Shown here: in pieces, positions 2,082 to 60,549 of the stretch
Position numbering within the stretch: position 1 is the stretch's first letter
Layout: the number at the start of each line of letters is the position of its first letter
NCBI GenBank assembly: GCA_041665465.1
Contig: JBAYIU010000001.1
Location: 1,406,260-1,470,259, forward strand
Length of the DNA: 64,000 bases
Direction: 5' to 3'
DNA from: Candidatus Woesearchaeota archaeon
GTDB lineage: Archaea; Nanobdellota; Nanobdellia; Woesearchaeales; GW2011-AR9
Notes under the pieces: model-generated
Told to the model about the DNA's origin: nothing
The model's input: the letters and a program-made list of their open reading frames with translations, nothing else
Database searches by the model: none
Translations under genes and position numbers: made by a program

Positions 2082-5000
2082 ATGAAGAAAAAGAAGAAGG
2101 TGGTTCGTAAAGTTCATTCTAAGGTACGTTCTAAAGTTGGTACTCAACCCTCTTCTCCTTTCTTAAGTGTTGGTTTACGTGGACTTGCTACTTTATTGGT
2201 AATTTTTGGGATACTTTTTTCATTACAACTTTACTCTTCAGAATCTTCCCTCCTTAAAGAAGGATGGACCTCTTTAAGTCAAGGATTTAATGGTATGGGG
2301 AACCTTCTTACCGGAGCAGCAGTTGGGGTAGAAGAGATGCAAGTCCAAGCGGGAGATTGTGCTGGAGCTTACACTGGCGGAAATTGGACTATTAATTCTT
2401 CTGTTAGTTGTAGTAATGATGTGATTAGTGTAGATGGTTTTGTGATAATTAGAAATGATTCTATCTCTCCTGAATTAGTGGTAAATAATTTCTCTTTAAC
2501 CACTACTGGGGTTTATGACTTAAGAGGTAATTCTACAAATATTGTTCTAGCTGTTCCAGATTTAGATTCATCTACTCCTTCTGCTTATACTAACGATTGG
2601 GATGCTAATTCTGGAAGAGAATTCCGTATTGCTATGAATGAATCCCAGAATAGAATAATGGTTTATGTTAACAATACTGACAACAGTAGTTTCCTTTATG
2701 AATTTGACTTAGATGATAACCCTAGCACCGGCGGGATTGTGGGTGCGGGGGATGATTTTGGGATAGGATATATTGGCGATTTTGGTGGGCCATTAATTGG
2801 ATGTTATAACTCTTCAGATCCGCAAAATAACCTAATTCTCTTATCTTGTGATAATAGTCCTCTTACCTGTGGAAATGTTGATGGCTACGATGGTACTTTC
2901 ATGGGCAACTTTACTGTTTATTGTAACAATTCCGGAAATGCATATGAAGTTGTGATTGATCTGACTAATGCTAGTGATGGGATATGGGAGACTAAACCTG
3001 TTTATGCTTTAGATCCGACAGATCAATCTTCTCCTTTTTATTACACTACTTTCCGGAATAACTCGGTTCTTGATTCGGGGATAAATGCTAGTGGTAATCT
3101 TGTCTTAAATAACGTTACTTTGAATCTTGAAAATAACTTTACTATCTCTGGAGGTAATCTTGATATCCAAAAATCAAATCTTACCTTTAGGCTTACTTCT
3201 AACGGAAGTGCTAATTTTATGATTAGTTCTGGAACTGCTTTTGCTAATATTAATCACAGTGCTTTTACTTCAAATAATTCTATCCTGAGATGGAAAGCGA
3301 GGATCACTGATGGAGATTACAATCTTACCAATAATGTTTTCTCATATGTGGGTTATGATAATGGAGATGGTATTGGTTATAATTACGAAGTTGGTTTTTA
3401 TTTTGCTTCTCCCTTGGGCGGATTAGTCTATAATAATACTTTCTCTAATTGCGGAACCATCGCGGAAGCTAGTTGTGTTTCTTTAGTTGATGGCGACGGG
3501 AATAGTAGAAATACTGGACTAAATTTCAGTTCCAACACCATTTTTAGTGAATCTGCGGGTCTTGGAACCTTTTATCTGTCTGATTATAGTAATACTTCTT
3601 ATACTAGTGGAGTTTTCATAGGGAATAATACTTTTTATGGTAGATTCTCAGTAGGTGGAAGAAACCACATTATCTCTGGGAACTATATAAATAAATCTCT
3701 CTGGTTATCTTCTGTTGAATATAATAATACTTTCATTAATAACGAAGTTAGAACGGAATTGGGGTTTGCTTCAATTAATGAGCAGAATACCTCTTATGGA
3801 TCTAGTATCATAATCTATTCCAATGGATATGGTAAGATGACCTGGAGCGGTAAAGATAACATTCAGATGGGTTTAGTCAGTGTAGATGAAACCTTTGGAT
3901 TAGGAAATTATTTCTATGTAGGGAACAATCTATTGGGTTTAAATGTTGGGAACGGTGCGGGAATAGATTTCTCTGTACTTAACACCACTGCTTCCTTAGA
4001 ATTTTATAGTTTGCTCTGGAATAATAGTGTCCAGTTATGTGTTAATAATAGTGGAACTTTATCTGGGTGTGTAGATTGTAATTCCGGGAATAATTGTACT
4101 TATAGTAATATTACTGGGATTATGTTAGCTAATGTTACTCATTTCAGTAATTATAGTACTAACGGAAGTATTAGTGTAGCAGAATCTCCTGCAGTGACTT
4201 ATCTAACTAACTTCACAGATACCTTTACCGGAACTACAATAAATGCATCAAGATATACTATTACTCAAAGTGGATTAAACGTTTCTCAGAGTGATAAGAT
4301 TATATTTAATGGTTCATATGAGGGTGCAACCTTTTTCACAAATTCATTTGTTGATACAAATCAATCATTTGTTATATCCATTAATGTAGCTAAATTTGAT
4401 CAGACAGAATATGTTGGTATTTTGGAGGACATTGGGCCTTTGGGTGGTGCTCCGGATGACAATGAAGTTGGAATTAGTATTGAAAATGACACCACTCGAA
4501 TTTTAATGTGTAAATTATTAAAAAATGATACTGGATACTTCATAGAAGCTAACGGTTTTACTCATCCCGCAGAAACAATGCAGGTAAACTATACTGAAGG
4601 CCAACTATTTAGCTTGAACTATTCTAATATTGATGGAAGGTATAGTTGTAATTATGCTGGTGAGATGGTTAGCAACACTAATAGTTCTGCTGCAGGGGCA
4701 GATTTTATTACTTTCGATGCTGAAGCAATTTCTCAAATGAATTTACAATTAGATGATTTAAACTTTTATTATGGGACATTAGTGGAAGAAGCTCCTGGAT
4801 CTTCTTATTGTGGTGGTGCTTACACTGGCGGAAATTGGAATATTAACTCTTCCATCAGTTGCAGTAATGAAGCGATTACTGTTAATGGGACTTTGACTGT
4901 TGCTGACAATTCTGTCTCTGCAAATGATGTGACTAACAATTTCACTTCTAATTCTGCTGCTAATTATAACCTTAGGGATAATTCTACAAATATTGTTCTA

Positions 5001-8000
5001 GCTGTTCCAGATTTAGATTCATCTACTCCTTCTGCTTATACTAACGATTGGGACAGTAATTCTAGTCATGAGTTCCGTATTGCGATGAATGAAACTCAGA
5101 ACCGATTAATCATTTTTACTAATAACACTAACAATCTTGATTTTGCTTATTCCCTTAATTTAGATGAGGGTCTTAGTGGAGGAGTCTTTGGTCCTGAATA
5201 TGGAGATGATTTCTTGGTGGGATACTCTGGTGGGCCTGCGATTGGATGTTATAACTCTAGTCTTTTAGACCTCAATGTCTTACCTTGTGATAGTAGTCCA
5301 GTTACTTGTGGAAATGTTTCTGGGTATGATAGTAATTACGATGGTAACTTTACTGTTTATTGTAACAATTCTGGGAATGCTTACGAGATAGTAATCGATC
5401 TAGCCAATACCGGAAACGGATTGTGGAAGAATAAACCCGTTTATGCTCTTGACTTAAACACCAGTGCTTTTTATTATACCACTTTCAGGAACAGTTCCAT
5501 TCTCCCGGTGGTTGCAGTGGGTAATTTAACCTTAAACAATGTTACTCTCAATCTGCAGAATAATCTTACTCTAAGTGGTGGTTATCTTAACATCTATGAT
5601 TCTAATGTGACGATGATGTTGACTGCTAATAATAGTGCAAATATGGATATAAGATCTTCTAATGTGAACTTAAGTGGGACGACTTTCTCTGCTAACAATA
5701 CTAATTTTAAATATATAATAGCAATACAGAACGGAAGTTACGCCAATAATGATTTTTCAGATTTGGCATTGTGGGTTTATCCTGGAACCGGCGGGGTATT
5801 CTCAAATAATGTGGTTTCCAATTGTGGTGGGACTCCAGCGTGTATCATGGCAGCCATAGGTTATAGCAACGGATTTAATTTTACGGGAAATAACATTACT
5901 GCCACTAGTGGTACTGCTTGGGCCACTATGGTTGCGGGAAACAATTACACTTTCAGTAATAATAATATTTATGGTAGCGCTTCACTCTTTTATGGGAATG
6001 TTAGCGTAAGTAATAATTTATTTAATCGTAGTTTATCATCAACAAAGGAGTATGGAATTGATATGATTATCTTTACCAATAATATTATCTTCCCCGGTAT
6101 TAATAGCCAATTGATGGGAGATTGGAACGATACCCTTCCTGACACCTTTATCTATTCAAATAACTATGGCAAGATCACTTGGAACCTTTCTAATTATACT
6201 ACTCCTGAACCTAATCCCAGTTCTTTTGGTTTGGGATATAATTTATACTTAAATAATAACATCGTTGGGGTAAATGCACAATTATCGCTTATTAACTTTA
6301 ATACCACTGCTTCAATTGAGTTTTATGGATTGCCTTGGAATAACAGTGTACAATTATGTAACAACATTAGTGGAACTTTATCTGGGTGTGTAGATTGTAA
6401 TTCCGGGAATAATTGTACTTATAGTAATATTACTGGAATAATGCTAGCTAATGTCACTCATTTCAGCAATTATAGTACTAATGGAAGTACTGGTGTAGCA
6501 GAAGTCGGAGTTAGTTATTGTAGCGGTGCTTACACTGGTGGAAATTGGAATGTTAGTTCTTCTATCAATTGTAGTAATGAGGTTATTCCCGTGAACGGAA
6601 TTATTACTGTTCAAGATCTTTCTGAAACTGCTGTGACCCAATTTGGGGCTTCTACTGGTGGAATTTATGATTTAAGAAATAACTCTACTGGTGTTTTTGA
6701 TACGGATTTAAGTTCTTCTACTCCTTCAGCTTATACTACTGATTGGGATTCTGATTCTAATCGAGTATTTAAGATTGCTATGAATGAATCTTCAGACACG
6801 ATTCAGGTATATGGAAGTTTACCTAACGTTACTGCTTTGTATAGTTTTGATTTAGATAATAATGCTGCTACTGGTACTTCTGTCGGTGGTTCTGGATCAT
6901 CAGGGATGGATCTTACTTTTGGATATCATGCTGATGCTGGTGGAGTGTTGATGGCTTGTTACAACTCTTCTGTGCCTGGTATGTACTTAACTTGGTTTGC
7001 CGCTAGTGGAAGCATTGTTTGTGGTCAAACCATGGATGTCGGGTATGATCGTAATTATACTATCACTTTTAATTCAACTGCCTCTGGAGGAGGGAACACT
7101 TTTGAGTTTATCATTAATTCTACGGGAAGTTGGACCGATAAGAGAGTGGAATTGATGGATGGGGGTAACGCCTATTATTATTATACTAAATTCAAAACAT
7201 CTGGAGCAGTGGCCGGAGGAAGGGGGAATTTAACTCTTAACAATGTTACCTTAACCTTATCTGGAAATCTTACTATTAATGGTATATTAAACGTTAATCG
7301 TTCTTTCTTATACTTTGGAAGTAATAATACTCTTTTCACTTCAAATATCGGAGCTAGCATATTAATCAATAATTCTAATGTTACTTCTAATGGTTCTATC
7401 CGTTATGGAATACGTTCCTTAGGGTCCGACTTTACTTTAGAGAACAGCTACTTGAATGATTTGGGAGCAGTTGTTTCCTCGATGACTTATCCCTTAAAGA
7501 TGGAAGGAACAGGAGGTATGATCAAAAATCTTTCTCTTGGAGCTAACCAAAAGATGTACGGGGTTCAGATTGCTGGATCAGGAATATCTGTCCTTAATAG
7601 TACCTTTTCTGGATCTGCTAACACCATTAATTTATTAGCGGGTAGTTATAATAATATTATCCGGGGGAATAATCTTTCTACTGGGATCAGTTATCTGAAT
7701 GGTGGAAGTTCTTATAACAATCTTATCGCTGAGAATACTATTGCCGGAGTGGGGAATATCTTGATTGGTCAAACTTCTCCAGCTCATTTACCTTATAACA
7801 ACACCTATCTGAATAATAATATTCAGCAGGTTATCACTACTTATGTTGTGAACTATACCAACTATTTCATCTACAATAATTCTTATGGGCAAATAAAATG
7901 GACCAAGAATAATTTCAGTTCTTCTTTTGGAGGAAATGCAGTATTGGTGTTGGACCAGACTGTGTTTGTTAGGTCGAACTTGTTAGGAGTAACCCCCAAT

Positions 8001-11000
8001 ATGTATATGGGGAACTTCAACACTACGGCGGAATTGACTTTTAGAAATCTTCTTTGGAACAATAGTGTACAGTTATGTGAGAATGTTAGTGGAACTTTAT
8101 CTGGATGTGTGGATTGTAACTCTAGTAATAGTTGTACTTATAGTAATATTACTGGGATTATGCTAGCTAATGTTACTCACTTCAGCAATTATAGTACTAA
8201 TGGAAGTATCAGTGTGGCAGGGGGTTTGATTAATAATATCTCTGTAGTGAAATATGCGGTTAATAGTACGGTTAATTGCGATTCAAATGTAACCAGTTAT
8301 GCCCTCTTTATTATTAACGTAACCAATAACAACGCTTACAACCTTACCAACATTATTGTTAATGACACTCCCTTATGTACAAATGGGTTATCCCTTCAAC
8401 AGTCTTTGCCGATATATACTAATTTCTCCTCTTGCAATTATGCTTCTTGGACCATTGCTAATCTTGGACCGGGTGAAACTTATAATATCACTCTAAATTT
8501 TAGTGTCAGCAGTTCTGGCAATTTAACTAACACTGTGCAGGTATGGAATGCAACCAGTCAGTTAGTGAACACTACCGGTAATATCACTGTTACTGGTAGT
8601 TGTGGTGGAGAAAGTCCGGGGTCAAATTTCCTTTCCAACTTTGTAGATACTTTTGATGGAGCGACTATTAATACCAGCGTATATAATGTAACCACTGTTG
8701 GAAACATCAGTATTTCTCAGAATAATAAATTGGTGATTAACGGTTCTAGTGGATATTCATTCGCTGCAACAAATAGCTACGTGAATGTAAGTAATAACTT
8801 TAGTGTTTCAGTAAAAGTAAGTAAGTTTGATAACACTACTTATGGCATTCTAGCAGGAGATCCTTATTCTAACTTTGGTGTGTTTATCAGTAGCTTTTCT
8901 GGCTCGTCTATCTCCTCTAACTTTGTTAGATGTAACATTGCTATGAATTCAAGTGGTTATTTCTTGAATGTTCCTAACCCTGGAAATACTGTTCCTGTAT
9001 CTTATGTTGAAAATGCTACTTTAACTCTGAATTATCATGCCAACAATTATACTTGTGATTGTACTTATGGTGGACAAACTATTTCCTGTGGTAATGAGAG
9101 TCTTCCTTCTACCGACTATTCTATCCTATTGTTCGGTGGCCTCATCTCTGTATCAAATTTACAATTTGATGATCTTAATTTGACGTATAATCCCGTGGCA
9201 GCAGCAGAAACTCCTGCAGGTCCAGGATTAACCATTTATAATAATGGTTTCTTTGAGAACTTTACTTCTTTGAATTCCACATTTTATAACAACACTCTCA
9301 TGATCTTTAGTAATCCTTCTATCATTAATGGGCAGTTGATGATGAATAAAACCACTTTTGAGGGTACTGGTCAAGATTACTTCTACACTACTGTAGATAA
9401 TGTTTCAACCAATAGTTCTTGGAACATTTCTGTTTGGATAAATTTAACTAACACTACTACTAATGCACAAGGAAGTTATTTGATAGAGGCAGGAATCTTG
9501 ATTTATAATAGAACTACCTACAGTAGTTCTTTAGCCTGTGAAGTAGGATATGGTAATGGTATTGGTTTAATATTAGCAAATTATAACAATACTCACAGTT
9601 CAGCACCAACGTATACCTCGGTCTCAAGGAGTTATGGTAACTTAACTTACAGTTACAACAACGCTACTGGAATTTTTAATTGTTCTTTAGATGATGGCAC
9701 TTCTGTTGCTGGATCAACTGGTTCTTTCGGTCCGGGTATGGGTATGGGTGTTGTTTCTCAATTGTCACAAATCGGGGCAGTTGCGCCCAACGGTTCTGTA
9801 ACTGCTTACTTTGATAATTTTAATTATACTTATGCGGTAGCAGCAACTCCTGCTGTGACTTACCTATCCAACTTCACGGATGATTTTGCCGGGACTACTC
9901 TCAATACCTCGAGATACACTCTAGATGTAGGGGGAACTTTGGGAATTGCTCAAAATGAGACCGTGATTGTCAATGGAACCGACACCGGTGCAGACAGTTT
10001 TGCGGGGACTTATACTAATTTGGGGGTTAACACTTCACGTTCATTCTATGTTTCTGTAGGGGTCCTAAACCTTACTAACACCAGCGCTATTACCAGTCCG
10101 AATGGTTACGCAGACGTTAGTCTTTCCTTGACTGATGTTGGTCTTGATTTTCTGAATTTTGCTGTCTGTAAGGTTAGGGTTAAACCGACAGGAATCTATT
10201 TGGAAGATGATAATGTTCAAAGTGTGCCCATATCTGCTACCAACGGTACTTTAGTGCTTTCTTTCAACGCTTCCAACCTGAATTATACCTGTGCTTTTGC
10301 TGGAGATAGTTTAACTAGTGCCAATCTCTCTGGTTTAGGTGGAAATAATAGTTTGGATCTTGTTGCCGAAGCACTTAATACTTCTGTCTGGGCAGAGATA
10401 GATAATCTAGAATTTGCTTATGGGGTTTATTCTGCTCCCGTAGAAACTCCTGCTGTGACTTACCTTTCTAACTTCACTGATAGTTTTACTGGAGTTACTA
10501 TCAACACTAGCAGATATATCTTAGATGAAGGCGGAAACTTATCTATGGCTCAGAATGGTACTTTGGTGGTCAATGGTACTGATAGTGGTTTTGATAGTTG
10601 GGAAGGAGTGTATACTAATTTAGGAGTTAACACTTCAGATTCTTTTTACATTTCAGTTGATGTTAATCTTACTAATACTAGTGCGATTACCAATGCGAGT
10701 GGTGCCACTCGTGCTTATATCTCACTCGCTGATGTGGCAACTGAACTGGATTTTGCGATGTGTGTAATTTACATAAGTCCAGCGGAGGTTGCTTTACAGG
10801 ATGGTGAGGGCGGTGGTCATGCTATGCCTCTATCTATAACCAATGGTACGCTGGTTATGGCTTTCAACGTTTCAAGTATGAATTATAGCTGTCAGTTTGC
10901 TGGACAAAATCTAACTCATGCTAATCTCTCTAGTCCAAGTGGTAATTATAGTTTGTTCTTAGAGTCTGATGCTTTGTATACCTCGACGTGGGCAGAGATG

Positions 11001-14000
11001 GATAACTTAGAGTTTGCCTATGGAGTTTATTCTGCTCCCGTAGCAGAAACTCCTGCTGTGACTTACCTATCCAACTTCAACGATACTTTTGATGGAGCGA
11101 CTATTAATACCAGTAGGTATACTGTTATTTCTGATGGGAATACTACCCTGTCTCAGAATAATAAAGTTATCATTAATGGTACTTCCGGTAGACCCATGAT
11201 GGGGATGAATAGCGCGGTAAACATCAGTAATAATTTCAGTGTTTCAGTCAAAGTAAGTAAATTTGACAATACCACTTATAGTATTATGGGAGCAGATCCT
11301 TATTCTTCTTTTGGGTTGTATATCGGTAACTTTTCTAATTCCAGTTATGATAAAGGCTTTGTTCGATGTAAACTTGCCATGAATTCTAGTGGTTATTTCT
11401 TGAATCATCCTAATTCCGGAAACACTGTTCCTGTCTCTTATGTAGAGAATGGAACTCTTACCTTGACATATTATGCTAATAATTATTCCAATAGTTGTAA
11501 TTATGATGGGAAAAATGTTTCTGGCATTAATGAGAGTTCTTCTTCTGGAGTATATTCTATCATTATGAATGCACAACCCCTTTCTTTAATCAACTTACAA
11601 TTTGATGACCTTAATTTGACGTATAATCCTGTAGCAGCAACTCCTGCTTCTGATAACTCTCCTAATGTTACTCTAGCCAATCCTGAAAATAATTATGTCA
11701 ACGATTCTGCGTCGAGAATTAATATCACTTTTGAATGTGATGCTACTGATGATTATCAACTAGTTAATGTCTCTTTATATTTAACTAATCCTGCTAATGC
11801 TTCTTTTGCTCTGAATCAAACCACCAATGTTGGTGGCACATCTAATTCAACTAGTTGGTTAGTAGAATTAGGTAATGGAAATTATACTTGGGGTTGTCTA
11901 GCATTCGATAATGCTTCTCAGTCCAGTTTCTCTACCCTCAATCACAGTATTCTAATAAACCATACTGTCTCGATATCTGATACCACTTATCCTACTGTAA
12001 CCCTAATCTCTCCTGCAAGCAGTTCTTACACAAACGCTAACAATAGTACCTTACCTTTTGTGTTCGGATACCAAGACAGTAATGATGCTACTGCTAACTG
12101 TACCTTATACCTGAACGGAGTAGCTAGAGGGAATAACGCTAGCACTAGAAACAACACTAACACTAATCTGTATTCTAGTACTACCTTCTCTGAAGGAAGT
12201 AATTCTTGGTACGTTAACTGTACTGATGCCGCTGGAAATACTAACGGAACTTCTACTTGGACTTTCATTGCTGATACTATTAATCCAACTGCTTCAATTA
12301 ATTCCATTAATACTCAGTATAGTGGTCAATGGACCAATACTCAAACTTTAAGTATTAATGCTACTGCTAGCGATGTTAACATTAATTATTGGAACCTTTC
12401 TGTATACAACAGTAATAGTTTAATTACTTCCAATCAGACTTCTGGAAGCAACCTTAATAATCTCGTTACTCTAAGTGTTTCTGCTGATGGAAATTATACT
12501 GTGAATTTAACCGTAACGGATCAAGTTAATAATTCCAACACTTCCACTTTCAATCTTCTAGTTGATACCTTTGCTCCTACTGTTAATTTGACTACTCCTC
12601 CTACAAATGTCTTAGTGTCCTTGGCATCAATAACTTCCACTTTCAATTTCACTGATGCTAGTTCTTCTAGCGCTAATTGCACTTTGTATGTGGGGGGGAT
12701 AGTTAAAGCAACTAACTCCTCTGTACTTAATTACACTAATACTGTGCTTACTGGTAGTTCTCTCTCTGAAGGGAACAATTCTTGGTATGTTAATTGTACT
12801 GATTTAGCAAGCAATACTGGAATCTCTGAAGTAAGAGTTATTCGAGTAGACACTACCACTCCCAGTGTCAGTGGTGCTAGTGTAAACGTAAGTCGAGCTA
12901 AATCTTCTACTTTGGTTGGAATCAATGTTACTGTAACCGATACCAATTTAGCCTGGGTTAAGGCTAATGGGATAAACATGAGTGCCAGTGGAAGCGACAT
13001 GTACAATCTTAGTGCAACTGCCTCTACTTTAGGATGTAGCGAAGGTACTTGTACTATTACTATAATTGCCAATGATTCTGCTAGAAATGCTAATAGTAGC
13101 GTTACTACCAGTTATGTGGTAGATGATACTGCTCCTGCACTGTTCTCTAACTCCACTTCTATCGCTACTGGATCAGTATACAATGCTTCATCTACTTATT
13201 ACTTCAATGTTACTTGGAATGAAACCGGAACCATTTCTAGTCCCTTATTAGAATTTAACAGTGCAAATTATACTATGACTACGGTTGGAAGCGGTGTTTA
13301 TTATTATACTTTTACCGATTTAGCAACTAGTACTTATTCTTACAAATTCATTGCTATAGATGATTCTGGGAATAGTAATGAGACTGCTAGTTATACTTAC
13401 GTTGTAGCTCAGGCAACTCCCTCTATCACCGCTTTACTTAATGGTACAGCTGCTAACCTAAGTGTCGCTTATCCCAATACCGTTAATGCTTCGGGAAGTA
13501 CCGACGCTGGAACCTTAGCTATTTATCGTAACGGGACATCTGTAACTAATGGGGCTGCATCTCTTTTAACTGTTGGATCTTATAGATATGATTTTAACGT
13601 TACTGGAAATCAGAATTATACTAACGCTTCTGCTACCTTGTATGCTACTGTGACTAAAGGTACTCCTGTCCTAACTTATTACTTAAATGGAAATACCACA
13701 AACTTAAGTGTTGTTTATCCTAATACCGTTAATGCTACTGCATCAACTACTGCAGGAACCTTAACCATTTACAGAAATGAAACTAATGTTACTAGTGAGA
13801 ATGGTGCAGCAACTTCTTTAGCTGTTGGATATTATCAATATGATTTCAATATAAGTGGTGGAGAGAATTATACTGATACTTCTACTACTTTGTATGCTAA
13901 TGTAACAATTGGAACTCCAACCTTGTCCCTGTACTTAAACGGAGCAGAAAACAATATGTCTGTAAACTACGGAACTAAAGTAAATGTTACTGGAACAGGT

Positions 14001-15179
14001 TCTGCATCTCAATTAAGTTATACCCTCTATCGTAACAATGTATCTACCCCTAACCCTGAAATTCTTTCCAATCTGTCTTACGGGACCAATTACACTTACC
14101 TCTTTAACACCAGCGGAAATGCCAATTACAGTGCTTCCTCGGTGTCTTACCAATTAGAAGTATTGTTGGGAGCGACTCAAGAATTAACCAATTCAACTGA
14201 TATTACTGTTACTAATACTACTACCGAAATTGTAATTCAGAATTCTAGTTTATCTCAAGTACGACTAAATTCTAGTATCGCTAGTACTACTCAAGTAAAT
14301 CTTTCTTTAGGTTTACTGATGGATCAGTCTACTGGAACTTTCAGTCTAGGAGAAAATAACTTCACCATGACTAGGGAAGTCTCTGGAGTGAACTATACTG
14401 TAGATATCCCGGCTAATACTAACTTGACTGGTGGAAGTGCTTGGGATGGTAAGTTTACTTTGCCCACTTTACCTGCTACTAGCGGATTTACTGCACCTTC
14501 TGGCAGTGTTAATTTAGTGATTGAAGTTGGTTCTACGGTGGAGATTAATCTCTCCGCTCCGGCAAAAATCGTTTTAAATGGAATGTCTGGAAAATCTGCA
14601 GGATGGTCCAGAAGTGGTACTATCACTGAGATAACCACTGTTTGTGATAATGCTACCTTGCCTACCAACATTAATACTACTAGTCCTAGAATCTGTTCTG
14701 TTGATAGTGGTAGTGATCTAATCGTTTGGACTTATCATTTCACTAACTTTGCTGCTTACACTCCCAGCGACGGATCTTCTAGTAGTTCTAGTAGCGGTGG
14801 AGGAAGTAGTAGTAGCAGCAGCACTCCCTCTTCTGCCCCAACAGAATACGCTACCGAGAACCCTGCTCCTAAATTGCCTTCAGTAACTAAAGCACCAACA
14901 GTGACTGCTCCGGTTGAAGTGCCAGTGGAAAATCCCGTTACGACTGTTCCTGAGACTGTTCCGGTTGAAGAGAATAAAGCTTTAGCGGGAATGGCTATCT
15001 CTGATCAACTTCGTTCAATCTTAACCGATTGGAGTAATTTATGGATTGGGTTAGTGGTGGTGGCTTTAATCGTTCTATCTCTATATCCTGTATTTAAGAG
15101 AGTTAAAAATAATCGTAACCGGGAAGAGATGCGAGAAGAATTAAGACAACAAGCGGCTAAGAAAATCAAACAGAAATAA
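2082..15179 (+). CDS. Giant (4365 aa) modular cell-surface protein: N-terminal signal/anchor helix, beta-helix-like Asn-rich repeats, lectin/LamG-like and Ig-like repeat modules, Ser/Thr/Pro-rich stalk, C-terminal TM helix with a basic cytoplasmic tail; saturated with N-x-S/T sequons (putative heavily N-glycosylated S-layer/adhesin-like protein)
   Basis: Single 13,098-nt ORF in AT-rich DNA (stop codons would be frequent by chance). AGGTG RBS 4 nt upstream. N-terminal 'LATLLVIFGILFSLQLY' helix. C-terminal 'SSSSSSSGGGSSSSSS...PTVTAPVEVPVENPVTTVPETVPV' stalk, then 'LWIGLVVVALIVLSLYPVF' and 'KRVKNNRNREEMREELRQQAAKKIKQK'. Modules recur 3-6 times. Confidence 0.88.
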   Translation: MKKKKKVVRKVHSKVRSKVGTQPSSPFLSVGLRGLATLLVIFGILFSLQLYSSESSLLKEGWTSLSQGFNGMGNLLTGAAVGVEEMQVQAGDCAGAYTGGNWTINSSVSCSNDVISVDGFVIIRNDSISPELVVNNFSLTTTGVYDLRGNSTNIVLAVPDLDSSTPSAYTNDWDANSGREFRIAMNESQNRIMVYVNNTDNSSFLYEFDLDDNPSTGGIVGAGDDFGIGYIGDFGGPLIGCYNSSDPQNNLILLSCDNSPLTCGNVDGYDGTFMGNFTVYCNNSGNAYEVVIDLTNASDGIWETKPVYALDPTDQSSPFYYTTFRNNSVLDSGINASGNLVLNNVTLNLENNFTISGGNLDIQKSNLTFRLTSNGSANFMISSGTAFANINHSAFTSNNSILRWKARITDGDYNLTNNVFSYVGYDNGDGIGYNYEVGFYFASPLGGLVYNNTFSNCGTIAEASCVSLVDGDGNSRNTGLNFSSNTIFSESAGLGTFYLSDYSNTSYTSGVFIGNNTFYGRFSVGGRNHIISGNYINKSLWLSSVEYNNTFINNEVRTELGFASINEQNTSYGSSIIIYSNGYGKMTWSGKDNIQMGLVSVDETFGLGNYFYVGNNLLGLNVGNGAGIDFSVLNTTASLEFYSLLWNNSVQLCVNNSGTLSGCVDCNSGNNCTYSNITGIMLANVTHFSNYSTNGSISVAESPAVTYLTNFTDTFTGTTINASRYTITQSGLNVSQSDKIIFNGSYEGATFFTNSFVDTNQSFVISINVAKFDQTEYVGILEDIGPLGGAPDDNEVGISIENDTTRILMCKLLKNDTGYFIEANGFTHPAETMQVNYTEGQLFSLNYSNIDGRYSCNYAGEMVSNTNSSAAGADFITFDAEAISQMNLQLDDLNFYYGTLVEEAPGSSYCGGAYTGGNWNINSSISCSNEAITVNGTLTVADNSVSANDVTNNFTSNSAANYNLRDNSTNIVLAVPDLDSSTPSAYTNDWDSNSSHEFRIAMNETQNRLIIFTNNTNNLDFAYSLNLDEGLSGGVFGPEYGDDFLVGYSGGPAIGCYNSSLLDLNVLPCDSSPVTCGNVSGYDSNYDGNFTVYCNNSGNAYEIVIDLANTGNGLWKNKPVYALDLNTSAFYYTTFRNSSILPVVAVGNLTLNNVTLNLQNNLTLSGGYLNIYDSNVTMMLTANNSANMDIRSSNVNLSGTTFSANNTNFKYIIAIQNGSYANNDFSDLALWVYPGTGGVFSNNVVSNCGGTPACIMAAIGYSNGFNFTGNNITATSGTAWATMVAGNNYTFSNNNIYGSASLFYGNVSVSNNLFNRSLSSTKEYGIDMIIFTNNIIFPGINSQLMGDWNDTLPDTFIYSNNYGKITWNLSNYTTPEPNPSSFGLGYNLYLNNNIVGVNAQLSLINFNTTASIEFYGLPWNNSVQLCNNISGTLSGCVDCNSGNNCTYSNITGIMLANVTHFSNYSTNGSTGVAEVGVSYCSGAYTGGNWNVSSSINCSNEVIPVNGIITVQDLSETAVTQFGASTGGIYDLRNNSTGVFDTDLSSSTPSAYTTDWDSDSNRVFKIAMNESSDTIQVYGSLPNVTALYSFDLDNNAATGTSVGGSGSSGMDLTFGYHADAGGVLMACYNSSVPGMYLTWFAASGSIVCGQTMDVGYDRNYTITFNSTASGGGNTFEFIINSTGSWTDKRVELMDGGNAYYYYTKFKTSGAVAGGRGNLTLNNVTLTLSGNLTINGILNVNRSFLYFGSNNTLFTSNIGASILINNSNVTSNGSIRYGIRSLGSDFTLENSYLNDLGAVVSSMTYPLKMEGTGGMIKNLSLGANQKMYGVQIAGSGISVLNSTFSGSANTINLLAGSYNNIIRGNNLSTGISYLNGGSSYNNLIAENTIAGVGNILIGQTSPAHLPYNNTYLNNNIQQVITTYVVNYTNYFIYNNSYGQIKWTKNNFSSSFGGNAVLVLDQTVFVRSNLLGVTPNMYMGNFNTTAELTFRNLLWNNSVQLCENVSGTLSGCVDCNSSNSCTYSNITGIMLANVTHFSNYSTNGSISVAGGLINNISVVKYAVNSTVNCDSNVTSYALFIINVTNNNAYNLTNIIVNDTPLCTNGLSLQQSLPIYTNFSSCNYASWTIANLGPGETYNITLNFSVSSSGNLTNTVQVWNATSQLVNTTGNITVTGSCGGESPGSNFLSNFVDTFDGATINTSVYNVTTVGNISISQNNKLVINGSSGYSFAATNSYVNVSNNFSVSVKVSKFDNTTYGILAGDPYSNFGVFISSFSGSSISSNFVRCNIAMNSSGYFLNVPNPGNTVPVSYVENATLTLNYHANNYTCDCTYGGQTISCGNESLPSTDYSILLFGGLISVSNLQFDDLNLTYNPVAAAETPAGPGLTIYNNGFFENFTSLNSTFYNNTLMIFSNPSIINGQLMMNKTTFEGTGQDYFYTTVDNVSTNSSWNISVWINLTNTTTNAQGSYLIEAGILIYNRTTYSSSLACEVGYGNGIGLILANYNNTHSSAPTYTSVSRSYGNLTYSYNNATGIFNCSLDDGTSVAGSTGSFGPGMGMGVVSQLSQIGAVAPNGSVTAYFDNFNYTYAVAATPAVTYLSNFTDDFAGTTLNTSRYTLDVGGTLGIAQNETVIVNGTDTGADSFAGTYTNLGVNTSRSFYVSVGVLNLTNTSAITSPNGYADVSLSLTDVGLDFLNFAVCKVRVKPTGIYLEDDNVQSVPISATNGTLVLSFNASNLNYTCAFAGDSLTSANLSGLGGNNSLDLVAEALNTSVWAEIDNLEFAYGVYSAPVETPAVTYLSNFTDSFTGVTINTSRYILDEGGNLSMAQNGTLVVNGTDSGFDSWEGVYTNLGVNTSDSFYISVDVNLTNTSAITNASGATRAYISLADVATELDFAMCVIYISPAEVALQDGEGGGHAMPLSITNGTLVMAFNVSSMNYSCQFAGQNLTHANLSSPSGNYSLFLESDALYTSTWAEMDNLEFAYGVYSAPVAETPAVTYLSNFNDTFDGATINTSRYTVISDGNTTLSQNNKVIINGTSGRPMMGMNSAVNISNNFSVSVKVSKFDNTTYSIMGADPYSSFGLYIGNFSNSSYDKGFVRCKLAMNSSGYFLNHPNSGNTVPVSYVENGTLTLTYYANNYSNSCNYDGKNVSGINESSSSGVYSIIMNAQPLSLINLQFDDLNLTYNPVAATPASDNSPNVTLANPENNYVNDSASRINITFECDATDDYQLVNVSLYLTNPANASFALNQTTNVGGTSNSTSWLVELGNGNYTWGCLAFDNASQSSFSTLNHSILINHTVSISDTTYPTVTLISPASSSYTNANNSTLPFVFGYQDSNDATANCTLYLNGVARGNNASTRNNTNTNLYSSTTFSEGSNSWYVNCTDAAGNTNGTSTWTFIADTINPTASINSINTQYSGQWTNTQTLSINATASDVNINYWNLSVYNSNSLITSNQTSGSNLNNLVTLSVSADGNYTVNLTVTDQVNNSNTSTFNLLVDTFAPTVNLTTPPTNVLVSLASITSTFNFTDASSSSANCTLYVGGIVKATNSSVLNYTNTVLTGSSLSEGNNSWYVNCTDLASNTGISEVRVIRVDTTTPSVSGASVNVSRAKSSTLVGINVTVTDTNLAWVKANGINMSASGSDMYNLSATASTLGCSEGTCTITIIANDSARNANSSVTTSYVVDDTAPALFSNSTSIATGSVYNASSTYYFNVTWNETGTISSPLLEFNSANYTMTTVGSGVYYYTFTDLATSTYSYKFIAIDDSGNSNETASYTYVVAQATPSITALLNGTAANLSVAYPNTVNASGSTDAGTLAIYRNGTSVTNGAASLLTVGSYRYDFNVTGNQNYTNASATLYATVTKGTPVLTYYLNGNTTNLSVVYPNTVNATASTTAGTLTIYRNETNVTSENGAATSLAVGYYQYDFNISGGENYTDTSTTLYANVTIGTPTLSLYLNGAENNMSVNYGTKVNVTGTGSASQLSYTLYRNNVSTPNPEILSNLSYGTNYTYLFNTSGNANYSASSVSYQLEVLLGATQELTNSTDITVTNTTTEIVIQNSSLSQVRLNSSIASTTQVNLSLGLLMDQSTGTFSLGENNFTMTREVSGVNYTVDIPANTNLTGGSAWDGKFTLPTLPATSGFTAPSGSVNLVIEVGSTVEINLSAPAKIVLNGMSGKSAGWSRSGTITEITTVCDNATLPTNINTTSPRICSVDSGSDLIVWTYHFTNFAAYTPSDGSSSSSSSGGGSSSSSSTPSSAPTEYATENPAPKLPSVTKAPTVTAPVEVPVENPVTTVPETVPVEENKALAGMAISDQLRSILTDWSNLWIGLVVVALIVLSLYPVFKRVKNNRNREEMREELRQQAAKKIKQK
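2529..2602 (+). repeat. 74-nt segment of the giant gene identical to 4980..5053 (codes LAVPDLDSSTPSAYTNDWD)
   Basis: Both copies read directly; perfect nucleotide identity. Confidence 0.85.
4015..4169 (+). repeat. About 155-nt near-identical intragenic module (WNNSVQLC..SGTLSGCVDCNSGNNCTYSNITGIMLANVTHFSNYSTNGS), copy 1 of 3; other copies about 6335..6489 and 8055..8216
   Basis: Near-identical nucleotide strings at three positions in the giant ORF. Confidence 0.8.
4980..5053 (+). repeat. Second copy of the 74-nt identical intragenic repeat (see 2529..2602)
   Basis: Direct comparison of the two segments. Confidence 0.85.
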
Positions 15180-21620: not shown

Positions 21621-22013
21621 ATGTCTCTCTTTTCAAACTTGCTAATGCTGTTAATAGGATATAGCGGTATTCTGTTTGGGATTATCTTAAGCTATATTGC
21701 TCCGGAAGAATTATCCTCCGGAAAGAGGTATTTTATGTTGTTAAGAATGATTCTTTATCTACTCTTTAACCTAATTGTAATCTATTTTTCTTGGTCTATG
21801 AATGATTTGTTTGGAATATTAATCTTGTTGATATTAATCATTGGATCAATATTCGTCTATAAGTTCCCTCAAAAATCTTATTCCTGGTGGGGATTATATG
21901 TGGTGTTTACTTTGTGCTACTTTTTAATCCCTGTATCAAATTTTCAAACTTTAGCTACAGTGTTAACTTTCCTATATGGGTTACCCTTAGGAACCTTACT
22001 AAGAACTCCATGA
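21621..22013 (+). CDS. Small polytopic membrane protein
   Basis: Four hydrophobic helices; overlaps the next start by ATGA. Confidence 0.4.
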   Translation: MSLFSNLLMLLIGYSGILFGIILSYIAPEELSSGKRYFMLLRMILYLLFNLIVIYFSWSMNDLFGILILLILIIGSIFVYKFPQKSYSWWGLYVVFTLCYFLIPVSNFQTLATVLTFLYGLPLGTLLRTP

Positions 22014-22660
22014 AGACCAAAGAAAAACAAGATTTGGAAGATGCTTTGAAAGAGAAAGTATCGCCTCTATTAGAAGAGACTATGGAAAAAAATTGGGGTA
22101 TCACCATCCCTAAATTAGGGTCAGATATCACCGATAATCTCAAGAACCCACAATTGAACATTTATATTCCTCCTGATTTAAACTTTGATCAAGCTAAAAA
22201 ACATTTTAAAGGGGAGTTTGTTAAACGAGAATTACGCCTTAACAAGGGAAATATTTCTCAACTGGCTAAATTACTTGGTGTGAATAGAAGAAGTATTCAT
22301 CGAGTGATAAAAGATCTTTCTATCGATAAGAAAAAAGAAACGTTATTATCTAAAGAAGATTATCAACAAGATGTGATTGATAAAACTCTACGTAGTACTT
22401 TAGATCAGTATAAAGCCATCATTCATCCTCAGCAAATGGAAAAGATGTATCAAGAAGTGTCTACTCTTTCTCGAAATATCGCCAAATTTATCCCTTTTGA
22501 AGAACTCTCTTGGAAAGAAGCAGAACGAGAATTTGAAAGACAGTTTTTACAACAAGCTCTTCGTGAGCAGGATAACAATATTTCTAAAACTGCTCAGAAG
22601 ATTGATATTCGTATCGAAACTTTGTACCGGAAGATTAAGAAACTGGGGTTGAAAGGATAG
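22010..22660 (+). CDS. DNA-binding protein with two Fis-type HTH motifs
   Basis: 'GNISQLAKLLGVNRRSIHRVIKDL' and C-terminal 'NISKTAQKIDIRIETLYRKIKKLG'. Start chosen at MKTKEKQ (the track ORF starts earlier, inside the previous gene). Confidence 0.45.
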   Translation: MKTKEKQDLEDALKEKVSPLLEETMEKNWGITIPKLGSDITDNLKNPQLNIYIPPDLNFDQAKKHFKGEFVKRELRLNKGNISQLAKLLGVNRRSIHRVIKDLSIDKKKETLLSKEDYQQDVIDKTLRSTLDQYKAIIHPQQMEKMYQEVSTLSRNIAKFIPFEELSWKEAEREFERQFLQQALREQDNNISKTAQKIDIRIETLYRKIKKLGLKG

Positions 22661-58756: not shown

Positions 58757-59410
58757 ATGACTAAAAAAGAAACTATTCTTGTTTTTGGAGCACATTCTGA
58801 CGATTTTGTGTTAGGGGCAGGAGGAACTCTGGCTAAATATAAAAAAGAAGGCAAGACGGTTATCTCAGTTATATTCTCTTTCGGTGAGAAATCTCATCCC
58901 TGGTTAAGGCAAACTATTGTACAACAGATGCGTTCCAAAGAAGCGATTGAGGCAAGTAATATTTTGGGAATGAGTCGTCTAGTTTTTTATGATTTAGAAG
59001 AACTTAAATTCTATGAAGAATATCAATCTAAGAATTTGGCGAAGGAATTGTTGGCTCTTATAGAAACAGAAGCTCCAACTAAGATTTTTACTCATAGTGC
59101 AGAAGATCTTCATCCTGATCATCAGGACGTTTACAAGATTACTATAGAGCTTTGGAAACTTCTACCAAAAACAGTTCGTCCAGAAGTTTATACCTATTCT
59201 ATCTGGAATCCCATATCACTAGATAATAAATACCCTTCATTATATGTTAATATCACCAAATACTTCACTCAGAAGATGAGAGCGCTGAAAACCTTCCGTA
59301 GTCAGAAGGTCTATATCGTTTATCCCATAATCTTACTATTATTCCGTTCATTAAAAGATGGATTAAGAATAAGAACACTTTTTGGGGAGAGGTTCTTTAG
59401 AATAAAATGA
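58757..59410 (+). CDS. PIG-L/LmbE-family N-acetylglucosaminyl deacetylase
   Basis: 'ILVFGAHSDDFVLGAGGTLAKY' (AHPDDE-like), 'HPDHQDV'. 4-nt overlap with the downstream GT4 gene. Confidence 0.75.
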   Translation: MTKKETILVFGAHSDDFVLGAGGTLAKYKKEGKTVISVIFSFGEKSHPWLRQTIVQQMRSKEAIEASNILGMSRLVFYDLEELKFYEEYQSKNLAKELLALIETEAPTKIFTHSAEDLHPDHQDVYKITIELWKLLPKTVRPEVYTYSIWNPISLDNKYPSLYVNITKYFTQKMRALKTFRSQKVYIVYPIILLLFRSLKDGLRIRTLFGERFFRIK

Positions 59411-60549
59411 CTCCTCTTGAACCTAAACTAAAATTATTGGTTGTTGCAGATACTTATTATCCCAAAGTTGATGGCATTCTTAGATTCATGGAAGAGTTTA
59501 TCAAGCGTTCTGAACATGATTTTGATCTCTCTCTGTTGGTTCCCAACCTTGGCTTGAAAAAAGGAAATAAAGTTACTTATTTAGAAACGTCTAAGTTCTT
59601 AAAAGTGTCTGGGTATCCAAGCATTAAATTTTCTAATCACAATAGAAAGATAATCAGAGAATCTGTCCAAAACGCTGATGTAGTATTTGTACAAGGTCCA
59701 GCTCTGGCTAGTTATTTAACCATTAAGTATGCTCATCGTTGTGGTAAACCTGTTGTGTTTTATGCTCATATTATTATTTGGGAATTATTTGAGAAATTTC
59801 TACCAAAAATATTTAATAAATTTATCTCTCGTTTAATCCGTCGTATAAACATAAAACTGTATAATAAATGTGGTGAAATTCTTGTTCCTTATCATGAACT
59901 TAAACATACCTTAGTTCATAATGGGGTAACTGTCCCTATTAGTGTAGCTAAGTTGGGAGTAGATATTGTTCGTTTTTCTCCTGTTCAAGATAAAAAACCT
60001 TGGAAGATAAAATTTGGAATTGATCCGGAAAAAACGGTTATTGGTTACGTGGGTAGAATATCTAAAGAAAAAAACGTGCCAGTATTATTAGAAGCATTTA
60101 ATAAATTACGTAATCGTCGTAATAATTTCTTATTAATGGTGGGAGATGGCCCGGATGAACAAGTGCAACCCTTTAAAGAAAATTCTCAATGTTTAGTTAC
60201 TGGATTTGTAGATAATGTTGAAGATTATCTTAAGGCCATGGATGTGTTTGTTATGCCCAGTTTGACTGAAACAACTTCTCTTGCAACTTTGGAAGCAATG
60301 TCTTCTGGATTGCCGGTAGTGGTTACTAAAGTAGGGTTTCAGAAACAGTATGTAGTTAAAGATTACAATGGGTTATTCTTCCCTAAGAATAGTCCTTCTT
60401 TGCTAGCTTTAAAGATCGAAAGAATCTTACGTCATTCTGAACTTAAATCGAGGCTTTCTCAGAATGCTCGTAAGACTATCTCTTATTCCTTCTCTTGGGA
60501 AAGGTCTATCAATCATATTAAACGTCTGCTGAAGAAACATAAAGAATGA
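59407..60549 (+). CDS. GT4-family glycosyltransferase (PIG-A/MshA/BshA-like)
   Basis: GT-B fold; C-terminal 'EAMSSGLPVVVT' E-x7-E region; 'GRISKEKN'. Confidence 0.85.
   Translation: MTPLEPKLKLLVVADTYYPKVDGILRFMEEFIKRSEHDFDLSLLVPNLGLKKGNKVTYLETSKFLKVSGYPSIKFSNHNRKIIRESVQNADVVFVQGPALASYLTIKYAHRCGKPVVFYAHIIIWELFEKFLPKIFNKFISRLIRRINIKLYNKCGEILVPYHELKHTLVHNGVTVPISVAKLGVDIVRFSPVQDKKPWKIKFGIDPEKTVIGYVGRISKEKNVPVLLEAFNKLRNRRNNFLLMVGDGPDEQVQPFKENSQCLVTGFVDNVEDYLKAMDVFVMPSLTETTSLATLEAMSSGLPVVVTKVGFQKQYVVKDYNGLFFPKNSPSLLALKIERILRHSELKSRLSQNARKTISYSFSWERSINHIKRLLKKHKE

Follow-up and report, generated by a model that had tools for sequence, protein, structure and literature searches.

A 4365-residue, sequon-rich modular protein of a woesearchaeote, a probable membrane-anchored surface adhesin

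The 64-kb stretch of DNA analysed here (the window) has one fifth of its length filled by a ~13-kb gene. It is in all likelihood a genuine single gene, and we propose that its product is probably a membrane-anchored, heavily N-glycosylated, multivalent glycan-binding adhesin of the cell surface. In the mechanism that we favor, the K/R-rich, hydrophobic N-terminus would direct Sec-dependent export of an acidic ectodomain of 4,200 residues. On the emerging chain, the archaeal oligosaccharyltransferase AglB would glycosylate many of the 277 N-x-S/T sites, giving a glycan coat, and the C-terminal transmembrane (TM) helix and its basic tail would retain the protein in the membrane. A long spacer, composed of the Ser/Gly/Pro/Thr stalk, the membrane-proximal domain and nine Ig-like modules, would then hold six L-type-lectin-like and three beta-helix modules outward, towards glycans of a substrate or of another cell, be it partner or host. 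The topology, the binding of ligands and the role in host attachment are predicted from the sequence.

DPANN archaea are attached to, or dependent on, other cells. For Woesearchaeota, to our knowledge, neither hosts nor attachment molecules have been described. The family of proteins considered below would therefore provide concrete candidates for an attachment apparatus, and the ligands of its lectin-like and beta-helix modules could point to the host. It should be kept in mind that some Woesearchaeota may be free-living, which counts against a reading in terms of host attachment.

Gene and module organization

The gene is a single unbroken ORF with an ATG start and no internal stop codon, encoding a 464-kDa protein with a pI of 4.2. 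Its neighbours in the window are ELP3, DUF655, Orc1/Cdc6, PolX and SerRS. The best named matches of the SerRS belong to Candidatus Woesearchaeota and, from the neighbouring genes, the SerRS and the taxonomy of the homologues, the source lineage is assigned to Woesearchaeota (DPANN). The GC content of the gene equals that of the remaining window, and recent horizontal acquisition was rejected on this ground. Rfam and tRNA scans of the window gave no match. AglB, which is known to be encoded by DPANN archaea (PMC8993221), is absent from these 64 kb.

About 20 modules can be distinguished: three beta-helix modules (A), six lectin-like modules (L), a DUF11 domain, nine Ig-like modules and a membrane-proximal domain (C-dom), followed by the stalk, the TM helix and the basic tail (Table 1). 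The counts derive from self-BLAST and HMMs, and the boundaries of the Ig-like modules were read from the sequence. The unbroken ORF, this modular composition and the DPANN lineage support the view, put forward in an earlier note, of one ORF specifying a 4365-aa giant modular surface protein of a small-genome archaeon. Its counts of repeated elements (three 'CGGAYTGGNW', three 'WNNSVQLC' and five to six 'PAVTYLSNFTD' modules) also agree with ours: 'C[AGS]GAYTGGNW' starts occur three times, at aa 93, 910 and 1480, 'WNNSVQLC...CVDCNS.N.C...THFSNYSTNG' ends three times, and 'PAVTYLSNF.D' modules as five canonical copies and one divergent copy (aa 2386-2585).

Table 1. Features of the gene, in window coordinates (nt); P0007 and P0010 are the closest relatives.
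Feature	Position	Strand	Basis or remark
Whole gene	2082..15179	+	single unbroken ORF
N-terminal leader: K/R-rich aa 1-33, hydrophobic helix, possible SPase site, spacer, LTGAAVG	2082..2357	+	hydropathy, motif counts
A1: N-cap 'CAGAYTGGNW', ~200-aa acidic insert subdomain, predicted right-handed beta-helix, Cys-containing C-subdomain ending THFSNYSTNG	2358..4181	+	self-BLAST, A-profile HMM, conserved residues
L1, predicted L-type lectin/ConA-like jelly-roll module	4182..4796	+	alignments labelled A3 and A4; fold from model of paralogue L4
A2 module	4797..6506	+	55% identity to A1
A3 module	6507..8231	+	orthologue of the single A module in P0007 (56% identity) and P0010 (44%)
DUF11 Ig-like domain	8232..8591	+	Pfam PF01345, 35 bits vs cutoff 24.6, E 1.9e-8, aa 2054-2165
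L2 lectin-like module	8592..9236	+	self-BLAST/HMM/alignment; 73% identity to P0007 aa 1243-1457
X, divergent lectin-like module	9237..9836	+	full-length L-module HMM match; invariant F, C, C, D, Y columns kept
L3, L4, L5 lectin-like modules (aa 2586-2785, 2786-2985, 2986-3192)	9837..11657	+	
Nine tandem Ig-like beta-sandwich modules, ~83-105 aa each (aa 3193-4028)	11658..14165	+	Pfam, internal repeats
Membrane-proximal C-dom (...SAWDGKF...APAKIVL...DLIVWTYHFTNFAAY)	14166..14765	+	70-74% identity in P0007, P0010
Ser/Gly run, then Pro/Thr/Val/Glu-rich stalk (aa 4229-4298), zero sequons	14766..14975	+	composition, sequon map
Juxtamembrane segment with conserved ALAGMA motif (aa 4300-4305)	14976..15038	+	motif statistics
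Predicted C-terminal TM helix (aa ~4320-4338) and basic cytoplasmic tail (aa 4339-4365)	15039..15176	+	hydropathy

In the alignment of the L modules, the residues F, C, C, D and Y are invariant. The model of the paralogue L4 predicts a lectin (L-type/ConA-like) fold for these modules, and its closest fold matches are lectins. The ConA-like fold is also found in glycoside hydrolases and in non-lectin modules, an observation that counts against a glycan-binding reading. The Ig-like modules announced by the earlier note are borne out by DUF11 and by matches to Pfam Big_13 (PF19077), with 44.8 bits against a cutoff of 27 at aa 3320-3399 and two further stretches. Weak Big_7 and PKD matches, as well as internal repeat periods of ~83 and ~204 aa in self-BLAST, were found in the same region. 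Composition and hydropathy likewise agree with the C-terminal features described there, namely a stalk of Ser/Thr/Pro, a TM helix and a basic tail.

The C-dom, which also occurs in a Patescibacteria MAG protein, has no match in Pfam or NCBIfam, TIGR04213 included; NCBIfam gave no match anywhere in the protein. A word-index homologue search with the C-dom was empty despite the ~70% identical P0007 and P0010 domains, which reflects a limit of the index and not an absence. Sequence searches against solved structures returned no significant match, whether the query was the A or the L profiles, the insert subdomain, the C-dom or the Ig region. Neither Pfam nor NCBIfam has a model for the A module or the C-dom, nor for the paired juxtamembrane motifs described below, and all of them could thus serve as the basis of new family definitions.

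Relatives, termini and surface location

The family was defined with the profile of the A2 module (N-cap C..Y..NW, acidic insert, beta-helix, C-subdomain ...FSNY.TNG). Searching public metagenomes with this profile gave 247 representative clusters at E<=1e-3, all of hypothetical proteins, and 33 full-length copies of the module in 27 proteins, three of these copies being in the protein studied here. All named homologues come from Woesearchaeota or Nanoarchaeota MAGs (e.g., PIZ52354.1, MBT7931024.1). The closest relatives, P0007 (GCA_964734485.1) and P0010 (IMG 3300013137), have 2266 and 2476 aa. Both contain the modules that make up the C-terminal two-thirds of the present protein, with some differences in order. 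On the downstream side, the locus of P0007 is in synteny with the window. Thus, the earlier statement that the architecture matches no family does not hold, given ~250 A-module clusters, two close relatives and published DPANN surface proteins of a similar kind (10.1101/794461). Upstream of their gene, the relatives carry a second large surface-protein gene that the window lacks. Its product is Cys-rich, of the PGF-pre-PGF type and devoid of an A module; being of a different type, it led us to reject a fusion of the relatives' two tandem genes as the origin of the present one.

According to hydropathy, the protein has no hydrophobic segments other than two terminal ones (aa ~34-54 and ~4320-4338). 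Each has a positive flank on the side facing the terminus, with 11 K+R in aa 1-33 and 11 K+R among the 27 residues of the C-terminal tail. The protein has the layout of its family, that is, an N-terminal hydrophobic leader and a C-terminal end made of stalk, TM helix and basic tail; a signal peptide followed by this C-terminal arrangement recurs in 44 of 121 homologues. Because of the two terminal segments, their positive flanks, the sequon-free ends and the recurrent layout, a location at the cell surface is predicted. The N-terminal helix may be a membrane anchor, as in the dual anchoring put forward in the earlier note. Just as well, it may be a Sec signal peptide that is removed by cleavage, in view of the possible SPase site (S-E-S, aa 54-56) that follows it.

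Short motifs accompany both ends. LTGAAVG lies at aa 76-82 (nt 2307-2327); [LI]TGA[AV][IV] is present in 33 of 139 N-termini of the family and once in the six frames of the window. A search of the literature for this string returned integrin gene names only. At the other end, of the 44 family members whose C-terminal part holds a TM helix, 14 have a hydrophobic-x-G-x-A motif at a distance of 15-19 aa ahead of this helix, for an expected number of 1.3, and a fifteenth has it 9 aa ahead; in P0145, LTGAAI occupies the position of the C-terminal motif. Tentatively, and with considerable doubt, it may be imagined that this pair of related motifs on either side of the ectodomain ([LI]-T-G-A-[AV]-[IV]-G with an acidic residue, located 3-60 aa past the N-terminal helix; hydrophobic-x-G-x-A before the TM helix) constitutes a hitherto unrecognised DPANN sorting or processing signal, or marks a two-point, hairpin-like anchoring of a glycosylated loop of 4,200 residues. 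If so, a new system for anchoring or maturation of archaeal surface proteins would be at hand, with a role analogous to that of sortase or archaeosortase signals. A PGF-CTERM substrate of archaeosortase A was rejected, as the C-terminal TM helix has no PGF motif; TIGR04213 (PGF-pre-PGF) did not match aa 4030-4365, and the relative P0002 scores 93 bits with it.

Haloarchaeal S-layer glycoproteins have a signal sequence, an N-glycosylated acidic ectodomain, a Ser/Thr-rich stalk, a C-terminal TM helix and a basic tail. This layout is also that of the present protein, which could therefore be a main envelope glycoprotein of the S-layer type, forming a protective canopy and not acting as a binding adhesin. 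Its sequon density, above that of the Sulfolobus S-layer (PMC4287180), would fit such a role, as would the second large surface-protein gene adjoining in the relatives. Methanosarcina surface-layer proteins likewise join beta-helix and PKD/Ig domains (Jing 2002, cited in PMC5498576). We nevertheless regard a structural role as unlikely. Six lectin-like modules suggest ligand binding, and neither Pfam nor NCBIfam gave any match to an S-layer family. The number of modules, together with their order, changes about two-fold from one close relative to another (2266, 2476 and 4365 aa), which is unusual for lattice-forming proteins and argues for an adhesin.

Sequons, beta-helix modules and integrity of the gene

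The protein carries 277 N-x(not P)-S/T sequons, that is, 6.35 per 100 aa or ~1 per 16 residues; the other 45 ORFs of the window have 0.48 per 100 aa. Shuffling its own composition produced 127.7±9.4 sequons, with a maximum of 155 in 1000 shuffles, so that the observed number is 2.17-fold higher (z 16.3). An explanation of the density by the Asn/Ser/Thr content, which the earlier note had named as fatal to its proposal, therefore fails. Control motifs were not enriched (S/T-x-N 0.95-fold; N-x-x-S/T 0.80-fold; D-x-S/T and Q-x-S/T ~1.0-fold), and N-x-T (2.45-fold) exceeds N-x-S (1.93-fold). No sequon occurs in aa 1-92, the stalk, the TM helix or the tail. Orthologues with 58-75% identity retain 80% of the sequons, and 22 alignment columns have a sequon in at least 50% of the 33 A modules. 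In the family, the median is 5.5 sequons per 100 aa and z is above 3 in 97% of the homologues. The density called extraordinary in the earlier note is thus real, directional and conserved, and is typical within the family.

The excess might alternatively be a structural feature of Asn-rich beta folds, arising from Asn ladders or turn motifs. Asn, Ser and Thr make up 36% of the residues, beta-helix repeats like GNLTLNNVTLNL hold N-x-T by construction, and some N-x-T in the turns of the beta-helix could be structural. This explanation is improbable in view of the strict directionality, and of an enrichment that extends to every 200-aa block of the ectodomain and to all fold types. Moreover, the bacterial (CPR) homologue of the C-dom has 2 sequons in 167 aa (z 1.1), against 11 in 200 aa here, and the Ser/Thr at position +2 of the sequons is selectively conserved (155 of 170, against 343 of 505 other Ser/Thr; p 2e-10). 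We favor actual N-glycosylation as the probable reason for this pattern.

The beta-helix modules proposed earlier are supported on weaker evidence. Positions 301-559 of the A profile align with aa 635-942 of the homologue P0018 (E 8e-21) and positions 321-453 with aa 765-948 of P0031; on these same stretches Pfam Beta_helix and NosD score above threshold. In the protein itself, scanned whole and with A3 alone, PF13229 (Beta_helix) and PF05048 (NosD) were not detected, and the A module of the homologue P0012, with 21.6 bits, stays short of the cutoff of 25.9. The structural model of A2 is of low confidence (pLDDT 50.5). These data provide moderate evidence for a beta-helix in the A module. In the 33 A modules, all conserved acidic residues lie within the insert subdomain, which possibly binds Ca2+. 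The acidic cluster considered as a candidate Ca2+ site comprises D69, D81, D/E83, E96, D120, D/E134 and E198, numbered in A1 with aa 92 of the protein as residue 1.

With such a fold, the protein might be a cell-bound enzyme degrading polysaccharides, the beta-helices being lyase, hydrolase or epimerase domains and the lectin-like modules carbohydrate-binding modules. None of the Asp, Glu, Lys, Arg and His residues in the beta-helix part of the 33 A modules reaches 80% conservation, and for this reason an adhesin is preferred over an enzyme. Besides, CAZy-type Pfam matches are absent, the nearest matches of the L modules are lectins and not enzymes, and the A2 model is too uncertain to lend support, making an enzymatic role quite improbable.

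Finally, a misassembly may be considered, in which a conserved A-module end would have served to join two paralogs, leader-A1-L1-A2... and leader-A3...TM. Within the gene, conservation of the DNA is highest where the A modules end (81-88% over 206 nt), P0007 and P0010 have an orthologue of A3 as their single A module, another protein, P0013, has an A module resembling A1 and A2, and a metagenome scan found no independent assembly of the A1-L1-A2 region. Such a chimera is nonetheless highly improbable, since the longest exact repeats (75 and 69 nt) are both shared between A1 and A2 and neither lies at the A2/A3 junction, the frame is maintained over 13 kb in a genome of 36% GC, the GC content is uniform, and multiple or tandem A modules are normal in the family (P0001 has an A directly after an A, P0003 two, P0004 three). 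With a best identity of 88% over 206 nt and no exact repeat beyond 75 nt, the in-gene repeats are divergent and give no sign of the collapse that the earlier note had envisaged. Synteny around the SerRS was discarded as a check of the 5' junction, because a relative with a 92% identical SerRS shares that gene only.

Comparison with known surface proteins

Archaeal S-layer glycoproteins (Haloferax, Sulfolobus SlaA) resemble the putative adhesin by their signal, N-glycosylated acidic ectodomain, Ser/Thr-rich stalk and C-terminal anchor; the present protein lacks a PGF-CTERM signal and has its potential sites spaced more closely, at ~1 per 16 aa, than Sulfolobus, at one per 30-40 aa (PMC4287180). 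In potential N-glycan density, it would surpass the most heavily glycosylated S-layer recorded from archaea about two-fold. Methanosarcina surface proteins share the combination of beta-helix and Ig/PKD domains. The Gram-positive L-lectin adhesins SraP, Aap and YwfG (serine-rich-repeat and related proteins) are bacterial, sortase-anchored and O-glycosylated in the cytoplasm, whereas the woesearchaeal protein has a predicted TM anchor, N-glycosylation sequons and no sequence homology to them.

Nearer in lineage are the SPEARE proteins of Nanohaloarchaeota, which exceed 4000 aa, vary between strains and are thought to interact with the host (Hamm 2019; PMC10266531). They too are DPANN surface proteins of giant size, in which a Sec signal and a membrane anchor accompany tandem Ig-like domains. 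The present protein is half the size, is based on beta-helix and lectin-like modules and has no coiled-coil tip. Membership was rejected, as it has no VirB4/TraG-like ATPase domain and no neighbouring VirB4 gene, the neighbours being SerRS and ELP3.

With P0007, P0010 and the A-module family, the protein shares A, L and Ig modules, the C-dom, the stalk-TM-basic tail end, the N-terminal LTGAAIG motif and the sequon density; it stands apart by its three A modules, an extra L module on the N-terminal side and nearly twice the length. More generally, DPANN archaea possess large surface proteins of the LamG/ConA-like type, rich in N-glycosylation sites, for which a role as adhesins has been proposed (La Cono et al., bioRxiv 10.1101/794461; Golyshina et al. 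2017, PMC5498576). Judged by their description, the points in common are large size, at least one ConA-like/LamG-like domain, many sequons (277 here, z 16) and a predicted surface location, hydrophobic segments being terminal only. Since this kind of protein is already in the literature and relatives are public, the value of the present case is incremental and not conceptual. On its sequence, it is best described as an expanded new member of an already described kind, with relatives already sequenced, and distinguished by its Woesearchaeota lineage, its six L modules and its three A modules, which have an acidic insert and match no Pfam family.

Reading frame, modules and assembly

The giant gene of the earlier note is a single genuine ORF of 4365 codons, with an ATG start and zero internal stops. 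Its GC content (36-39%) is the same as that of the remainder of the window. The product has a computed mass of 464 kDa and an acidic pI of 4.2. Asn, Ser and Thr account for 12.9%, 12.6% and 10.8% of its residues, and only two segments are hydrophobic; the first is preceded by a stretch with 11 Lys/Arg and the second is followed by a tail with 11 Lys/Arg per 27 residues. The order of the modules (see the table) was derived by self-comparison and profile HMMs, by which every motif count of the earlier note proved right.

An assembly chimera may be envisaged. However, the intragenic DNA repeats have diverged (at most 88% identity over 206 nt), and only two exact repeats of at least 40 nt, of 75 and 69 nt, are present in the gene, both between A1 and A2. 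Furthermore, multiple or tandem A modules are usual among independently assembled homologues: in P0001 one A module directly follows another, P0003 has two and P0004 three. A second, independent assembly of the A1-L1-A2 region was not found, so that a chimera is still a small residual possibility. The A2-to-A3 linker, STGVAEVGVSYC, is similar to the end of the leader, LTGAAVGVEEMQVQAGDC. Judging from these sequences, the likeness may date back to an ancestral fusion joining two tandem genes.

Coordinates of the window protein, its modules and motifs, and other genes mentioned in the text
Feature	Amino acids	Nucleotides (strand)
Giant ORF		2082-15179 (+)
Leader	1-92	
N-terminal hydrophobic segment	~34-54	
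[LI]TGA[AV][IV]G copy	76-82	2307-2327
A1 (putative beta-helix module)	93-700	
L1 (lectin-like module)	701-905	
A2	906-1475	
A2-to-A3 linker	~1464-1483	6470-6530
A3	1476-2050	
DUF11	2051-2170	
L2	2171-2385	
X (divergent L module)	2386-2585	
L3, L4, L5	2586-3192	
Nine Ig-like modules	3193-4028	
C-dom (membrane-proximal)	4029-4228	
Stalk, Ser/Gly then Pro/Thr/Val/Glu	4229-4298	
Juxtamembrane segment, then TM helix, then basic tail	C-terminal to stalk	
Juxtamembrane segment with the hydrophobic-x-G-x-A motif	4299-4319	14976-15038
C-terminal hydrophobic segment	~4320-4338	
HTH_8 ORF (257 aa)		21887-22660 (+)
ORF overlapped by HTH_8 ORF		21621-22013
Hydrolase-domain protein (803 aa)		50571-52982 (-)
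PIG-L/GT4 gene pair		58757-60549 (+)
PolX-PHP DNA polymerase		60893-62689 (-)
Bro-N domain protein		62800-63642 (+)
Upstream surface protein, locus L003 (1882 aa)		2215-7863
Upstream surface protein, locus L005 (1760 aa)		2610-7892
CPR protein with C-dom, locus L008 (726 aa)		8951-11131

Sequon enrichment and predicted N-glycosylation

The earlier note had proposed a densely N-glycosylated protein, and the density of sequons (N-x-S/T, x not Pro) indeed exceeds what composition explains: 277 were counted, or 6.35 per 100 aa, vs 127.7±9.4 (maximum 155) in 1000 own-composition shuffles. The excess is confined to the sequon register. The mirror motif S/T-x-N occurs 122 times for 128 expected, the offsets N-S/T and N-x-x-S/T reach 0.92- and 0.80-fold, the controls D-x-S/T and Q-x-S/T about 1.0-fold, and N-x-G and N-x-N are below expectation. 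N-x-T is more enriched than N-x-S (2.45- vs 1.93-fold). Along the ectodomain, 7-20 sequons are present in each 200-aa block; none is found in the leader or in aa 4246-4365, which cover most of the stalk, the TM helix and the tail. In the 45 other ORFs of the window, the rate is 0.48 per 100 aa and 11% of the Asn lie within sequons, as compared to 49% in the giant.

The sequons of the window protein are under selection. With respect to orthologues of 58-75% identity, 80% are retained; the +2 Ser/Thr is kept in 155 of 170 cases and Ser/Thr elsewhere in 343 of 505 (Fisher p 2e-10), the sequon Asn in 141 of 171 and Asn elsewhere in 97 of 136 (p 0.03). The alignment of 33 A modules (27 proteins) has 22 columns in which half or more of the copies, and for some columns up to 94%, show a sequon. 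The entire family is enriched (median 5.5 per 100 aa and z >3 in 97% of the 118 homologues with 600 aa or more), and unrelated surface proteins neighbouring the giants of relatives are likewise enriched. A Patescibacteria protein carrying C-dom provides a natural control: it is unenriched (10 sequons for 7.4 expected), with 2 sequons in C-dom vs 11 in the archaeal giant. Thus, considering the excess over composition, its register specificity, selection and the bacterial control, dense N-glycosylation would be the best reading; a purely structural origin of the excess seems improbable.

The highest site density known in archaea had been ascribed to the S-layer of Sulfolobus, at one per 30-40 residues (PMC4287180). 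For DPANN archaea, genes for AglB have been reported (PMC8993221); none was found within the 64-kb window. Also in the window, the gene of a PIG-L family de-N-acetylase (87 bits) is adjacent to, and overlaps, that of a GT4 glycosyltransferase (126 bits). Both could be part of glycan or lipid-linked oligosaccharide synthesis.

Relatives and module identities

Archaeal genes (ELP3, DUF655, Orc1/Cdc6, PolX) neighbour the giant, and the adjacent SerRS has its top named matches in Candidatus Woesearchaeota, with nameless metagenome matches at 92-95% identity. A word-indexed protein search returned only two relatives of the A module; exhaustive HMMER search returned 247 representative clusters at E<=1e-3, 51 at E<=1e-30. 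Giants of 2-5.2 thousand aa are frequent among these proteins, and all named members come from Woesearchaeota or Nanoarchaeota MAGs and are annotated as hypothetical protein. The C-terminal two-thirds of the window protein are 55-74% identical to P0010 (2266 aa) and P0007 (2476 aa), its closest relatives. C-dom is common to the three proteins, the tail is 68% identical in P0010, and ELP3, L21e, Rpb4 and DUF655 follow in unchanged order at the P0007 locus. The single A module of P0007 and P0010 is the orthologue of A3, and for A1 and A2 the nearest A module is that of another protein, P0013. Consequently, the window protein represents an existing family, in a form expanded at the N-terminus. 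It is unusually long for this family, which is uncharacterised and without a profile model. The exact sequence was absent from the databases searched; the type of architecture, the taxonomic home and the sequon richness are already known, and homologues are public.

Each of the two nearest relatives has another large gene for a surface protein beside PGK, directly upstream of the giant's orthologue, a position taken by SerRS in the window. Its products are rich in Cys, contain Ig-like modules, a PGF-pre-PGF-like domain and one TM helix, and reach a sequon z of 7.5-7.8.

The L module, modelled with AlphaFold2 from a 20-sequence alignment (pLDDT 91.7, pTM 0.88), has a predicted fold resembling that of phage receptor-binding proteins and of lectin modules in three adhesins, SraP, Aap and YwfG; Pfam gave only a weak Lectin_L-type_dom hint. 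The A module had no match in Pfam, NCBIfam or PDB sequences, and its profile aligns to homologue stretches above the Pfam Beta_helix and NosD thresholds. A unit of putative beta-helix and C-subdomain (profile positions ~235-560) recurs alone, up to 7 times, in other giants, and the second A copy of P0001 is without insert; an N-cap and an inserted subdomain therefore make up the first ~235 positions. In the 33 A modules, the conserved charged residues all lie within the insert, as an acidic cluster, and none in the helix, a distribution which argues for binding, possibly Ca2+-dependent, over catalysis. DUF11 and Big_13 exceed Pfam thresholds in the window protein. Assignment of C-dom as a PGF-pre-PGF domain was rejected; the relatives P0002, U3 and U5 have that domain at the same position. 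In the Patescibacteria protein (MAG contig JBAYVE010000001.1), C-dom (...SAWDGKF...APAKIVL...DLVIWTYHFTNFATY) is 38% identical and precedes a linker, to which a TM helix and a basic tail are joined. CPR bacteria and DPANN archaea may share this domain, or one may have received it from the other, unless the contig is mis-binned.

Protein ends and proposed function

The N-terminal helix may act as a signal anchor, as the dual membrane anchors of the earlier note would require, or, since a Ser-Glu-Ser site follows, be a cleaved signal peptide. In 33 of 139 family N-termini, [LI]TGA[AV][IV]G occurs 3-60 aa past this helix. In 14 of 44 members, for 1.3 expected (p ~1e-12, an optimistic value because the motif was defined after inspection), the motif hydrophobic-x-G-x-A stands 15-19 aa ahead of the C-terminal TM helix, and in a fifteenth 9 aa ahead. 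P0145 has LTGAAI at the C-terminal position. These two related, conserved juxtamembrane motifs, noted also among family members P0003-P0148, may be a sorting or processing signal.

Elsewhere in the window, a protein of 803 aa carries a TM helix N-terminally and a lipase-type alpha/beta-hydrolase domain C-terminally; its sequon excess is slight (12 for 7.3 expected), and it is probably another surface-exposed protein. At the window edge, the gene for a PolX-PHP DNA polymerase adjoins one for a protein with Bro-N, a domain that viruses and mobile elements typically carry. A GTG-started ORF overlapping the end of another encodes a Fis-type HTH_8 domain (65 bits, two stretches), a regulator domain of bacterial type, here in archaeal surroundings.

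It is likely that the window protein acts as an adhesin. Exported by Sec, glycosylated by AglB and anchored by its TM helix, it would carry multivalent lectin and beta-helix modules on the Ig-like stalk. A structural protein of the S-layer type is an unlikely alternative to this adhesin. A cell-bound enzyme degrading polysaccharide is hardly to be expected from a beta-helix without conserved charged residue. Large LamG/ConA-like surface proteins with many N-glycosylation sites have been described in DPANN archaea (10.1101/794461), and this description suits the window protein, as does the wider concept of giant proteins by which DPANN archaea would interact with hosts (PMC10266531).
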